64,000 nucleotides of DNA, from positions 498,107 to 562,106 of the forward strand of contig CAVRQR010000006.1 of the NCBI GenBank assembly GCA_963723495.1, read 5' to 3'. Positions within the stretch are counted from its first letter, which is position 1. The number at the start of each line of letters is the position of its first letter. This document shows positions 57,792 to 61,965 of this stretch, piece after piece. Made by a program: the position numbers and the translations under genes. Source of the stretch: an uncultured Acidobacteriota bacterium. GTDB lineage: Bacteria; Acidobacteriota; Vicinamibacteria; Vicinamibacterales; UBA2999. The notes below the pieces were generated by a model, which worked only from the letters and a program-made list of their open reading frames with translations, ran no database searches and had not been told where the DNA came from.

Positions 57792-58229
57792 TGTAGTGCT
57801 GCGCGAAAAGCCCCGGAACTGCTCGAGCATCTTCGTTCCCAAAACAAGGCAGAAGAAGTCGGCCTCGGCTCTCCGGCTACAGCCTGATGCGAATTTGAGC
57901 CGCTGGAACCGCGTTCGGTGGCAGGACAGGAGCATCCGCCGCATCGCCTCTGAACTAGCGATCAGCCGGACTGGCGTCGAGCGGGATCTTCGCCTGGCGC
58001 GGCGTCTCGCCGAGCAGGGCTACGACAGTGCGAACCGTCTGTACGGGCGCGAGGGAATCAGCGTCCGGGCGTCATCGTCGGCCCTTATGGCTCCTCCTGC
58101 GCGGCGGTCAGCGCACGACGCGCCATCTCTATGATTGTATGGACCCCGGCTTTGCAAAACCTTTCCCCCCGGAGTTCCCTTGGTCTGACGGCGCGTTGGA
58201 GCGTGCCCTAATCTGTCTGGGCTGTCCAG

Positions 58230-58406
58230 TCCCCCAGATAGCCTTCGTCGAGGAGTGCTTGGGCGAGGACCTCGAGGATGTTCCGCAGGACGCCCGAGCG
58301 GACCCACTGCTGAAACCGGCGGTGGCATGTGATACGACGGATACCGGTCTGGCAGGTCGGCCCACGGAGCGCCGGTCCTCAGGATCCACAGAATGCCAGT
58401 GAACAC
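58230..58406 (-). pseudogene. IS5-family transposase remnant
   Basis: [22 protein letters not shown] then [13 protein letters not shown] across a frame break. Confidence 0.75.
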
Positions 58407-58517
58407 GGCACGTTAAGTGGCCGCAACGGCGTTAGGACCAAGCCGCTGGCGCGGCGGACGCTACGCGTGAGGTGCGCCCGATCAGCCGGGTAGCGTGTGG
58501 GTCACCAGGAGGTGCCT

Positions 58518-59411
58518 GTGACCCATCTCAGACAAGCGATGCTGGAGGAACTCCAGCGGCGCAACTACGCGAAGACCACCGTTTACTACTACCTCAAGGC
58601 CGTCGAGCGATTCGCCCGGTTCTTTCACACGTCCCCGGATCAACTCAATCAGAGCCACCTACGACAGTATCAGGCGTACTTGCTGCGCGAGCGGAAGCTC
58701 GGGCCGCGCACGGTCAAGCTACATGTCTCGGCACTCCGGTTCTTCTTCGTGAAGACGCTCAAGCGCCCCTACCTACTGGAGGACATCCCCTTCCCGAAGG
58801 TCCCGCGGCGGCTCCCGGTGATCCTGACCACCGAGGAAGTCGCGCGCCTGATCGAGGGGGCGAAGAACCTCACCGATCGGACCATGCTCATGGTGCTGTA
58901 CTCGACGGGCATGCGGAACGCCGAGTTGCGGCACCTGCAGGTCCGCGACATCGACAGCCGGCGCATGTTGATTCACATTCAGCACGGCAAGGGCGGGCGT
59001 GATCGCTACGTGCCGCTCAGCGCCCGCCTGCTGGAGACGCTCCGCGTGTACTACAACTGGATGCGGCCGAAGACGTGGCTGTTTCCCGGCACGATCCAGA
59101 ACTGGCGCGCGGACAAGCCGATCACCCCGAAGGTCGTGTGGGACGCGTGTCGCGACGCGGCGAGGCGTGCCCAGCTGGAGAAACGCGTCTCGCCCCATCT
59201 GCTGCGCCACGCGTACGCCTCGCATCTGGTAGAAGCGGGAGCTGACTTGCGGACCGTGCAGCTCTTGCTCGGGCACGTCAAACTCGAGCACACCGTTATC
59301 TACCTGCACCTGTCGCAGCGGCACCTGCAAGCGGTCGCCAATCCGCTCGACGCGATGCCCGTCTCCGGCGCCGATAGCGTGCGCCGCACCCGTCGGCTGC
59401 ACAAGCGGTGA
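58518..59411 (+). CDS. Tyrosine recombinase (SAM-like N-domain plus phage integrase catalytic domain)
   Basis: Catalytic R (TGMR), K (GKGG), HxxR (HLLRH), H (LLGH) and Y (TVIY); RBS AGGAGG. Confidence 0.9.
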   Translation: MTHLRQAMLEELQRRNYAKTTVYYYLKAVERFARFFHTSPDQLNQSHLRQYQAYLLRERKLGPRTVKLHVSALRFFFVKTLKRPYLLEDIPFPKVPRRLPVILTTEEVARLIEGAKNLTDRTMLMVLYSTGMRNAELRHLQVRDIDSRRMLIHIQHGKGGRDRYVPLSARLLETLRVYYNWMRPKTWLFPGTIQNWRADKPITPKVVWDACRDAARRAQLEKRVSPHLLRHAYASHLVEAGADLRTVQLLLGHVKLEHTVIYLHLSQRHLQAVANPLDAMPVSGADSVRRTRRLHKR

Positions 59412-60595
59412 AGCGGCCACCCTTCGAGGTGGCCGACATCGTGCGCCGACATGGCGATCGCGTCTTGGAGCGGCACCGCGCCTGGGTGAGTGGGCAGCAT
59501 CGGCGCGTCCTCCGGGCGATCGCGCAGTGTCGTACCGCCGCGCTTGGTGGGCACCGCGATCGCTGTGACCAGTGCGCGCACCCGGCCCTCTCGTACAACA
59601 GCTGTCGCGATCGGCATTGCCCGAAGTGTCTGACCGCGGCGCGGAACGCCTGGGTGACAGCTCGCGAGCAGGAGCTGCTGCCCGTCGGCTACGTCCACAT
59701 CGTCTTCACGATCCCGGAGCCACTCGCGCGTCTCGCGCTAGTCAACAAGCGCGTGGTGTACGACCTGCTGTTTCAGGCGGCCGCCGACACCTTGCTCCAG
59801 GTCGCGAGCAATCCGAAGCGCTTGGGTGGCGTCATTGGCGGGCTGATGGTGCTCCACACGTGGGGCCAGCGGCTGCAGCATCATCCCCACGTCCACTGCG
59901 TCGTGCCGATGGGCGGCTTGGCGCCGGACGGCGCCCGGTGGATCCACGCCCGGCCGCGCTTCTTCCTGCCGATTCCGGTCCTCCGGAAGCTGTTTCGGGG
60001 CAAGCTCGTCGCCGGCATCCGAGACGCCTTTCGACACGGTCGCCTCCATCTGCCGGGCCGTCTGGAATCACTGAACACGGCCGTCGCCTTCAGCGCCTTC
60101 CTCCGATCGCTCCATCGTCAGACGTGGGTCGTGTACGCCAAGCCACCCTTCGGCAGTCCGGCGCACGTGCTGCACTACCTGGCGCGCTATACCCACCGCG
60201 TCGCCATCTCCAATCACCGGCTCGTCGACGTGACCGACGACACGGTCTCGTTTCGATGGAAAGACTACCGGCACGGGAGTCGAGTCCGGACGCTCACACT
60301 CGACATCGAGGAGTTTCTCCGCCGCTTCCTGCTGCACGTCTTGCCGAAGCGCTTCGTCCGCATCCGCTACTTTGGCTTCCTCGCGTCCCGGTGCCGGACG
60401 CCACAACTCGCCCAGTGCCGTCAGGCCTTAGCCGTCGCGGCGGCCCCGCCACCCGAATCGACGCCTCCCGCGCCGCCGCGGGCGTCATGGCCGTGTCCCC
60501 ACTGTGGCGGCGCCATGCGCGTCGTCGAGCGCTTCACGGCACGGCAACTCCGTCTCACGGCGCTCCTCGCCGACATCCTCCATGACACGTCGTAG
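59408..60595 (+). CDS. IS91-family HUH Y2 rolling-circle transposase
   Basis: Zn-binding CRT..LGG..C..C..SCRDRHCPKC; HTWG..HPHVH; YLARY; IRYFG. Confidence 0.92.
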   Translation: MKRPPFEVADIVRRHGDRVLERHRAWVSGQHRRVLRAIAQCRTAALGGHRDRCDQCAHPALSYNSCRDRHCPKCLTAARNAWVTAREQELLPVGYVHIVFTIPEPLARLALVNKRVVYDLLFQAAADTLLQVASNPKRLGGVIGGLMVLHTWGQRLQHHPHVHCVVPMGGLAPDGARWIHARPRFFLPIPVLRKLFRGKLVAGIRDAFRHGRLHLPGRLESLNTAVAFSAFLRSLHRQTWVVYAKPPFGSPAHVLHYLARYTHRVAISNHRLVDVTDDTVSFRWKDYRHGSRVRTLTLDIEEFLRRFLLHVLPKRFVRIRYFGFLASRCRTPQLAQCRQALAVAAAPPPESTPPAPPRASWPCPHCGGAMRVVERFTARQLRLTALLADILHDTS

Positions 60596-61026
60596 CGGCA
60601 CGCCTCGATCCGCCAGGCGCTCTGGTGACGTCGCGCTCGTACGCGCGTGCGCCGGAGGTCTGCCCCGCGCTCCGCGTCAACGGCCACGACCCGCCGTCTC
60701 CCACGCCGTCCGCGTCACCATCGCCGCGCTCGGAGCGTCGGCACCGGGTGGTACGCCCGCACATCAGTGGTCCGTACGATTGAAAGGACATAGCTGACGG
60801 GCCGCGTCCGCCGCAGACGCCAGCGGCTTGGTCCTAACGGCTCTATCGAAAGTGACCCGGCGATCGAACCTCGAGGTCGATCCGCGCGCTCGCGCGCCGG
60901 GTCACTCCCGATAGAGTCATATCGTTTATCGTGAGTTAACGCCGGCCCAAGAGGCGCGAGGATATGAACGGCAGCTGTTCCCTGGGGCACGCGTACAAGA
61001 GCAGGCTGTCGAATGCTTCTCGCCAA

Positions 61027-61965
61027 CTACTTGTACAAGTCGCCGGCGAGATACTTGAGGCCTGTATCGACGGCGACGGTTGCCACTACCTTGCCTGGCC
61101 CGAGCTCTCGCGCTAGTTGGAGCGCGCCAACCAGATTGAGTCCCGTTGATGTCCCCGCAAAAATGCCTTCTTCCCTGGCCGCACGGCGCGTCATCGCCCG
61201 CCCCTCGTTCTCTTCGATGGCGCGCGCCTCGTCGTACGATCCTGCGACCAAATGTGGCGGCCAGAAGCCGGCAGCCGTGCCCTCGACACCATGCGGCCCA
61301 CCCGTGCCAGCCGTGAGAAACGGCGAGGTCGATGGCTCGAGCGCGATAATGCGCGTCGCCGTGTCGACCTGCTTCAAGGCATTCGACACACCCACCAGCA
61401 TACCCGCCGTTCCTACCATGCCGACGAATGCGTCGACGCAGCCGATCTGCTCCACCAGTTCGCGGCCGATGCCAGCATAGCCATCCAGCGCGTCGGCATT
61501 GTTGAATTGATCGGTCCAAAAAGTGTTCGGGTCCCTTGCCAGTTCGGCGATTCGGGCCTTGAAGCGATCGAACAGCGCAGGCGTAACCTTACCTCCATCG
61601 CTCGGCACGATCTCGAGGTCGGCACCAAAGGCCCGCATCGTGTCGAGTTTCTCGACCGCGAAAGCGTCCGATGACAGAGGATGAAAGTCGTAGCCTTTCA
61701 TCGCGCACACCATGGCCAACGACGAGCCGGTGCTGCCGCCGGTGTACTCGACGACGCGCATCCCTGGCCGCAATGCGCCACGTCGTTCGGCGCCTTCGAT
61801 CATGGCGAGCGCCATCCGGTCCTTATACGACCCGGTTGGATTGAAGTATTCGAGCTTCACGAAGACATCGGCCGAACCGCGCGTAACGAGCCGCTGCAGA
61901 CGCACGAGCGGCGTGCGGCCGATTGTGCGAAGCACAGAATCAACGGCTGCGGGCAATGAGATCAT
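61027..61965 (-). CDS. Cysteine synthase-family PLP enzyme
   Basis: IGRTPLV, KLEYFNPTGSYKDR, VGTAG and DTGLKY motifs. Confidence 0.85.
   Translation of the reverse strand: MISLPAAVDSVLRTIGRTPLVRLQRLVTRGSADVFVKLEYFNPTGSYKDRMALAMIEGAERRGALRPGMRVVEYTGGSTGSSLAMVCAMKGYDFHPLSSDAFAVEKLDTMRAFGADLEIVPSDGGKVTPALFDRFKARIAELARDPNTFWTDQFNNADALDGYAGIGRELVEQIGCVDAFVGMVGTAGMLVGVSNALKQVDTATRIIALEPSTSPFLTAGTGGPHGVEGTAAGFWPPHLVAGSYDEARAIEENEGRAMTRRAAREEGIFAGTSTGLNLVGALQLARELGPGKVVATVAVDTGLKYLAGDLYK

Follow-up and report, generated by a model that had tools for sequence, protein, structure and literature searches.

Insertion sequences (IS) of the IS91 family can mobilise the genes next to them, and how these elements move is still under study. 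IS91, IS801 and IS1294 encode an HUH Y2 transposase with a zinc-binding N-terminal domain, have left and right ends that differ in function, with an origin-side palindrome downstream of the gene, and produce no classical target duplication. A 2026 study of IS91 settles only which strand of the circle is active: the bottom-strand circle alone is inserted (PMC13181058). A large, phylum-spanning IS91 subgroup carries in addition a conserved tyrosine recombinase of catalytic type, and our search of the open literature returned no open-access paper analysing the ends of this subgroup or the role of its recombinase. Here we describe one such element in a 64,000-nt stretch of DNA from an uncultured Acidobacteriota bacterium (assembly GCA_963723495.1, contig CAVRQR010000006.1, positions 498,107 to 562,106), hereafter the window, in whose numbering all positions are given. 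The element encodes a transposase of this type, appears to share the other features just listed for IS91, IS801 and IS1294, and lies at 58430-60925 in an acidobacterial-type chromosome.

A reading of the window made from its letters alone (the sequence-only reading) had called a two-enzyme mobile element here, and the core of that call stands: a tyrosine recombinase and an IS91-type transposase are encoded by overlapping open reading frames that match their respective families. Positions 58430-60925 almost certainly make up one intact, recombinase-bearing IS91-family insertion sequence of 2,496 bp, with ends corrected as set out below. As to how it moves, the reading that we favour, at a little under an even chance and from sequence comparison, is that the HUH enzyme makes a bottom-strand circle and that the recombinase joins the folded junction of this circle to an Xer-type site. 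The features concerned are, from left to right:

58414-58429, no strand: target-derived flank forming the left half of the insertion site; the letters up to the element are ..GCCGCAACGG
58430-58461, plus strand: inverted repeat on the left, 22 + 10 bp, with which the element truly begins
58430-58434, plus strand: CGT and the variable dinucleotide TA, left-end crossover region
58518-59411, plus strand: Xer-like tyrosine recombinase, 297 aa, with Pfam and NCBIfam matches
59408-60595, plus strand: IS91-family HUH Y2 transposase with an N-terminal zinc-binding domain, 395 aa (Y2_Tnp 6e-64, Zn_Tnp_IS91)
60804-60839, plus strand: right inverted repeat, 10 + 4 extra + 22 bp, subterminal
60841-60916, minus strand: conserved hairpin with covariation and A·C bias, presumably origin-side (oriIS-like) and folding in the bottom strand
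60917-60925, plus strand: 9-nt tail with CGT as its last three bases, where the element truly ends on the right; beyond this CGT same-genome copies are no longer identical
60926-60941, no strand: right half of the insertion site, flank; the window reads TTATCGTGAGTTAACG

The recombinase matches Phage_integrase (2e-40) and Phage_int_SAM_4 in Pfam. A GTG at 58497 would extend it to 304 aa, and the start at 58518 is favoured because most homologues are 297 aa long. The 4 nt that the two genes have in common (GTGA) hold both the TGA stop of the recombinase gene and the GTG start of the transposase gene. A 4-nt overlap is found in 54 of 64 evaluable loci, and the transposase itself scores 426 bits against the NCBIfam IS91 equivalog NF033538 (cutoff 125). 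Across 56 distinct homologues, with identities as low as about 40%, the recombinase residues R133, K158, H227, R230, H253 and Y262 never vary, and since these are all six active-site residues the protein is taken to be catalytic. Among 68 distinct homologues of the transposase, the HUH histidines H161 and H163 and the zinc cysteines likewise never vary, while Y257 and Y261 are each present in 67. Judged by this conservation, both enzymes are kept active. The best solved-structure relatives of the recombinase are XerA (4a8e), IntI4 (2a3v, second) and XerD (1a0p). Its scores against XerA, XerD, XerC and IntI models are similar and all under the curated cutoffs (XerA 201 against 220, XerD 182 against 330, XerC 181 against 335; TIGR02249 178 bits against 265 and PRK15417 121 against 435 for IntI), and by these scores it is Xer-like and not an orthologue of XerA, XerD or XerC. 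Where IntI4 has 67 residues the recombinase aligns only 29, which leaves out the IntI-specific insert of about 38 residues, and on this alignment it is no integron integrase. A predicted complex of recombinase and transposase scored 0.00 in a run without controls and carries no weight either way.

A catalytic recombinase upstream of an HUH transposase could nevertheless be an accessory, and the classical IS91 mechanism, in which the transposase does all the cutting and joining next to a short CGT(T) target, is a serious rival, although we consider it unlikely. The recombinase might then work at the repeat-hairpin-repeat junction to resolve tandem multimers and cointegrates that arise by rolling-circle read-through, or might act as Orf121 does, controlling termination at the left end and damping transposition. 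In IS91, TnpA alone inserts bottom-strand junction circles (PMC13181058), and Orf121 occupies the same upstream position, overlaps tnpA stop to start, is needed for precise cleavage at terIS and inhibits transposition. The upstream gene of the window's element differs from this 121-aa protein in being a full catalytic tyrosine recombinase of 297 aa, and a regulator need not keep six catalytic residues invariant, although a resolvase would.

The layout of the ends was established from homologues and from copies within single genomes. The perfect 22-bp inverted repeat (58430-58451 and 60818-60839) described in the sequence-only reading was confirmed at its coordinates, with 2 matches in the window and 0 in 100 shuffles, as was its 10-bp extension (58452-58461 and 60804-60813), which is set off by 4 extra bases (60814-60817) on the right side only. 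Homologues also have three or four bases interrupting the right repeat, and their presence is conserved but their sequence is not (AGA, AAA, ACA, CTA); in a folded junction 60814-60817 would form a bulge. Paired repeats were sought with up to 6 mismatches in 84 loci, and 37 of these have left and right copies 2.3-2.6 kb apart. The hairpin lies 3' of the right repeat in all 37, as it does in the window, and a tail ending in CGT was located in 35, the remaining two being one degenerate and one cut by a contig end. The copies at L025, L026 and L027 differ from one another at 1 of 2,527 positions and those at L050, L051, L054 and L055 at 2 of 2,519, and in both sets the flanks are unrelated immediately outside the left CGT and the right CGT. 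Because similarity runs through the hairpin to the tail CGT (window 60925) in every same-genome copy set, the hairpin is part of the element, which measures 2,496 bp and not 2,410; the CGT is invariant at both ends. The inverted repeats had been proposed as the element's ends, which is true of the left repeat, whereas the right one is subterminal, and the hairpin that had been placed beyond the right end is real but lies inside. Of the junctions expected at GTT/AAC triplets, the left one is supported (CGT|T overlaps GTT) and the right one falls 86 nt beyond AAC. The motif CGATA-N6-TATCG, taken for a separate palindrome, arises where the 3' arm of the hairpin overlaps the tail and occurs in 5 of 29 distinct right ends.

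The ends are thus asymmetric, with hairpin and tail at the right only, and yet an inverted repeat of 22-32 bp is also present, a feature that the IS91 paper says the family does not have. The CGT at both ends, which may belong to the element, to the target or to both, resembles the tetranucleotide rule of the family, and this resemblance favours the classical mechanism. A 360-bp non-autonomous derivative (L038:2625-2985), about 1 kb upstream of a full copy, has the left repeat followed by about 200 bp and then by the right repeat, the hairpin and the tail; since it keeps only these repeats, hairpin and tail, they appear to be the cis-acting parts. Natural head-to-tail junctions occur at L027 and L063, where the tail abuts the next left end and one CGT is shared, and a complete Sinorhizobium plasmid carries a tandem recombinase-transposase-recombinase-transposase array. 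In L063, a contig of 2,265 bp, the junction lies in the middle, which is what assembly of a circle or a tandem would give. Tandems or the starts of second copies recur (L027:5400-5600, L063:1000-1200, L088:1904-6886, L001:4681-5571), and their sources include long-read genomes, a short-read contig and complete plasmids. Such tandems would be substrates for a resolvase, and their recurrence at L027, L063 and L088, together with a second recombinase gene after the L001 copy, counts in favour of an accessory recombinase on the classical mechanism.

Two long conserved inverted repeats flanking both genes are also the layout of invertible segments, and the recombinase might act on the repeats to invert the gene pair as a switch. 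We find this scarcely credible: the hairpin lies downstream of the transposase gene in the window and in 37 of 37 two-repeat loci, no flipped arrangement was seen among them, and the repeats are contiguous and paired in tandem junctions.

The hairpin (27-nt arms, 85% complementary) was examined for the strand in which it is selected. The sequence-only reading had put forward conservation of repeat and hairpin among homologues as a check, and both are conserved; the hairpin covaries, with compensatory changes in 8 of 14 predicted pairs among 29 distinct right ends. Across 20 positions paired by register (580 stem cells), 505 pairs are Watson-Crick, 61 A·C, 1 G·T and 13 other. Since an A·C of the coding strand becomes G·T when the other strand is read, this bias indicates that the structure is selected in the bottom strand, and the proteobacterial relatives follow the same pattern (A·C 17 versus G·T 1; bottom strand more stable in 8 of 8). 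The bias matches the insertion of the bottom-strand circle by IS91, and a bottom-strand single-stranded intermediate, shown for IS91, is presumably shared by the window's element. Signs of rolling-circle transposition through a single-stranded circle are indirect: this strand bias, the head-to-tail junctions and the sets of identical copies within genomes. An Rfam scan of 57900-61400 at E<=1 gave two chance-level matches only, with no known RNA family for the hairpin, and a promoter and terminator scan of 58300-61050 found neither; the hairpin is not a canonical terminator.

Folded as single-stranded DNA, the natural junction at L027 forms one long stem-loop in which the right repeat pairs with the left repeat and the pairing continues into the hairpin, with energies of -54.9 kcal/mol (z -6.2) in the top strand and -64.0 (z -8.4) in the bottom strand; the joint is a short bulge between two duplex segments. 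Of 32 modelled junctions, 28 are more stable in the bottom strand. The window's own modelled junction is an exception (top -82.5, bottom -78.2), although either strand folds far more stably than shuffles do (-37 +/- 3). On these models, the "terminal inverted repeats" look less like the usual transposase-binding ends than like paired arms of a junction hairpin.

The flanks and the outermost bases of the copies were compared next. The unique flanks (34 left, 35 right) show a consensus of about 16 nt on each side, with about 8 bits on the left and about 10 bits on the right, and background beyond, so that the target consensus comes overall to about 35 bp and about 18 bits beyond the CGT, a length that sets the element apart from the tetranucleotide targets of the IS91 family and speaks against the classical mechanism. 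The right flank has a GGAC-type motif at +7 to +10, like that of the left end but 4 nt further out. Positions 4-5 of the left end are a hot spot of change between near-identical copies. Position 4 is the sole variable column of 2,527 in L025, L026 and L027 and one of two variable columns of 2,519 in L050, L051, L054 and L055, and positions 5 and 4 also vary in two further sets of the five same-genome sets; the per-group chances of such variation are 0.0365, 0.0325, 0.0008 and 0.0016, with a product of about 1.5e-9. Right-flank positions +1 and +2 vary as well among near-identical copies. Left-end position 5 equals right-flank +2 in 27 of 35 sites, and in the window's clade all 4 elements with T at position 5 have T at +2, two of the four sharing a flank. 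The first two bases of the right flank may derive from the crossover region.

This rewriting of the left-end dinucleotide between copies is a further difference from the IS91 family, and it separates the mechanisms. A single-strand model with one nick per end keeps one dinucleotide constant per lineage, either that of the left end or that of the right flank, and so does not explain why both vary, which tells against the classical mechanism. Exchange by a recombinase, whether of one strand followed by replication or of two staggered strands, keeps neither constant and fits the observation. The possibility that the right-flank consensus is a decayed tandem copy was tried and rejected, element-like flank DNA being present only in L027 (a tandem) and L076 (an inverted copy) of 36. 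Two diverged copies in one genome, L014 and L016 (42 differences), have 718 bp of right flank in common, which are 97% identical and include 497 bp without a difference, but do not share the left flank; these could be independent insertions at the edge of a repeat or copies with co-mobilised flanking DNA.

The target was also examined in proteobacterial relatives. Their protein identity to the window's element is 45-54% in the members examined, and one rhizobial member matches 68 plasmid records, 47 of which cover at least 80% of its length. Among 12 proteobacterial insertions, CATAA stands exactly at -11 to -7 in seven and matches at four of five bases in three more, and the word after the right end is TTATG, CTATG, TTATC or TAATG in 11 of 11. 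By these word positions, the proteobacterial insertions fall where the right arm of a dif-like CATAA-N6-TTATG site meets its 6-bp central region, the architecture of Xer/dif sites. This placement of relatives, exactly at an arm/spacer border of Xer-type sites, counts against the classical mechanism. In one Rhizobium strain two copies occupy the same kind of site in opposite orientations, and several proteobacterial insertion sites are at the ends of tyrosine recombinase gene arrays. The relatives often lie directly at the end of other tyrosine-recombinase genes (L085:4634-6890, L090:1-28, L095:1-23, L096:1-30); among these is a run of three integrase genes resembling a recombinase-in-trio element, and the flanks there carry stacked CATAA/TTATG half-sites.

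With other members of the recombinase-bearing, ISAzo26-like subgroup the window's element shares the gene order, the end plan (left repeat, then right repeat, hairpin and short tail), the bottom-strand hairpin bias and the tandem copies. It differs in its tail, a repetition of the inverted repeat's tip with CGT at the end, whereas the rhizobial tail ends ..CTCTGCA with a shared TT, and in the 4-nt overlap of its genes, which are 5-10 nt apart in the three proteobacterial members evaluated.

Taken together, the rewritten dinucleotide and the Xer-type targets of the relatives are the reasons for which we favour a role of the recombinase in joining. By homology to IS91, the HUH Y2 transposase would nick the bottom strand at the right end (hairpin and tail), rolling-circle synthesis would displace this strand as far as the left end, and the strand would be closed as a single-stranded circle. 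In the closed or tandem form, right repeat, hairpin, tail and left repeat come together and, in the computed folds, form a long imperfect stem-loop with the joint at a bulge between duplex segments. The element's own Xer-like recombinase would then use the folded junction as its attachment site and exchange one strand, between left-end positions 5 and 6, with an Xer-core-like target, and replication would complete the insertion. Such a pathway would leave CGT and a two-base "spacer" on both sides, with the left-end spacer rewritten at each move. The stricter claim, that these elements are obligate two-enzyme transposons in which the HUH enzyme only makes the bottom-strand circle and the recombinase inserts it through the joined-end hairpin into Xer-core-like sites, is one that we raise as a possibility while leaning somewhat against it.

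Several observations weigh against joining by the recombinase. In IS91 itself the transposase alone inserts single-stranded junction circles (PMC13181058), and an HUH enzyme of this family can thus join without a recombinase. The apparent exchange point on the bottom strand lies just 3' of GTCC in the window's clade or of GTTC in the Acidobacteriaceae clade; these same tetranucleotides are the reported targets, adjacent to oriIS, of IS1294b and of IS801/IS1294, and their presence at the exchange point, which fits the classical mechanism, could point to the HUH enzyme. When the reconstructed acidobacterial target was tested for dyad symmetry and hairpin covariation, complementarity was no higher than the consensus predicts, the only exception being positions -5 and +2, largely a clade effect. 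This target is only partly like CATAA-N6-TTATG (C-A-C-T-A at -8 to -4, T-T-n-T-C at +1 to +5), and the window's own site, ..CGCAA-CGGCGT | TTATC.., also bears a partial likeness to it. The exchanged region is at most 5 nt, while tyrosine recombinases usually exchange 6-8 bp, and target-matched rewriting within genomes rests on few independent events.

Variation in both dinucleotides would also arise if the recombinase worked on double-stranded DNA. In a small integrative element of the Tn554, Tn916 or strand-biased-circularising kind, the recombinase would excise a double-stranded circle and integrate it by a staggered two-strand exchange across CGTNW, and the HUH protein would be a replication initiator only, amplifying the circle from the hairpin origin. 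We hold this to be improbable. The invariant catalytic residues of the recombinase agree with it, the junction is palindromic around ACGT in many members, and siblings carry C at left-end position 4 or right-flank +1 (L050 versus L054; L025 versus L026), as heteroduplex segregation predicts. Moreover, the rewriting resembles the fate of spacer or coupling sequences in tyrosine-recombinase transposons, since in Tn554, the strand-biased circularising elements and Tn916 every move alters the spacer bases beside the ends, which thus keep a record of previous or new sites (PMC10214605). These elements lack an HUH enzyme, an absence that the same paper uses as an argument (PMC10214605), and the window's element has one, in the form of a bona fide IS91-family transposase. 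The strand bias of the hairpin is a sign of selection on a single-stranded bottom-strand form, the many identical copies per genome imply replicative spread, and the three bases left of the CGT are never swapped between tail and target, which limits any stagger to 5 nt or less. The tail and the target spacer of the proteobacterial members are without homology, and spacer non-homology normally blocks the second strand exchange.

Joining of a folded single-stranded junction by a recombinase has its closest worked-out precedent in CTXphi, whose HUH endonuclease makes single-stranded circles, with tandem integrated copies allowing rolling-circle production of new ones; its attachment site is a hairpin stem in this DNA, where XerC exchanges one strand with a dif-type site and replication finishes the insertion (PMC4439123). 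In the window's element, two inverted repeats lying about 86 nt apart at the junction fold likewise, and its relatives occupy dif-like sites. The differences are that the window's element brings its own recombinase, is of IS size without phage genes, and occurs in many copies at many sites, where CTXphi uses one dif.

The sequence-only reading had proposed a single-stranded circle whose folded ends are used by the recombinase in integron fashion. The strand-adapted hairpin and the fold of the L027 junction fit a folding circle, and joining by the recombinase is the reading favoured here, but the protein is not an integron integrase and the site is not an attC. Shared with integrons are an Xer-related recombinase, a folded bottom strand with unpaired bases and a left-end crossover in a G-T-T context. 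The recombinase nevertheless lacks the IntI-specific insert and scores under both IntI cutoffs, no attI or cassette array was seen, the flanks hold ordinary genes and an IS remnant, and the likeness of the ends to integron core sites turned out weak (the left end reads GTTAGGA here, but among 34 sites 15 have T and 17 have A at position 5). An attC consists of paired R and L boxes with a short variable loop, whereas the fold here is a stem of about 60 pairs formed by element ends that lie about 2.4 kb apart and meet only in the junction. The integron analogy therefore holds loosely and fails as membership. If the folded junction is joined as we suppose, the element would be, by analogy, an IS-sized, self-contained counterpart of CTXphi or integron-cassette integration.

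To assess the occurrence of such elements, we surveyed plasmid records, genomes and metagenome protein catalogues. The pairing of a recombinase with an IS91 transposase is old, conserved and already catalogued, and this kind of element is therefore known: NCBI annotation calls the recombinase-bearing IS91 subgroup the "ISAzo26 family", one plasmid record names its transposase "IS91-like element ISAzo26 family transposase", and in the window as in the annotated ISAzo26 copy the recombinase gene lies directly upstream of the transposase gene in the same orientation. ISSod25, ISMno23, ISWz1 and ISCARN110 of ISfinder presumably belong to the recombinase-bearing subgroup too. Plasmid records matching the element number 336, at 60-80% DNA identity, with an annotated tyrosine recombinase adjoining an IS91 family transposase. 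A scan of one genome per species matched at least 608 stretches, at least 553 of which encode relatives, and the best 80 of these at least 608 are mainly from Acidobacteriota, with a few from Planctomycetota, Gemmatimonadota, Pseudomonadota and Actinomycetota. Metagenome protein catalogues hold thousands of close homologues of both enzymes, with top identities of 97% for the recombinase and 95% for the transposase. The contigs with close homologues in the protein catalogue are mostly 1-4 kb long, about the size of the element, as expected if the element is multi-copy and breaks short-read assemblies. Of 88 loci related to the window's element, 76 have a recombinase next to the transposase on its upstream side; among the other 12, seven are cut by a contig end, four have fragmentary recombinase matches and one is a truncated copy (L086), which lacks its 5' part and is hence uninformative.

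Identities of recombinase and transposase to the window's proteins can be discordant (70/85 at L005, 98/85 at L008, 76/61 at L025), and the discordance, seen at L005, L008, L024 and L025-L029, suggests from sequence that modules have been exchanged between elements. In a comparison of such mosaics, taking the L025 group with its window-like recombinase (76%) and distant transposase (61%), the cis sites looked ancestral rather than recombinant, and no assignment of sites to either protein follows from it. The copy at L017:3022-6813, with repeats 3.8 kb apart and a transposase match that ends at residue 363, is probably interrupted by another insertion. On the left flank of the window's element, the first 26 residues of an open reading frame at 58020-58406 (minus strand) match positions 32-57 of DUF4096, below the Pfam cutoff. 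DUF4096 is the N-terminal domain of IS4/IS5-type transposases, and this reading frame looks like an IS remnant truncated at or near the element's left end. The right flank showed no continuation of it and leads into the 3' end of a gene for a pyridoxal-phosphate (PLP)-dependent enzyme (61027-61965, minus strand).

The corrected anatomy makes definite predictions for the subgroup, namely the strand that folds, the exchange point (left-end positions 5/6), the two bases that are rewritten and the form of the target. If the recombinase inserts the circle made by the HUH enzyme, this may be the first role assigned to the recombinase of the subgroup. Joining by the recombinase, if true, would link rolling-circle transposons mechanistically to integrons and to phages that exploit Xer, and would explain the accumulation of these elements at the ends of other recombinase-borne elements.

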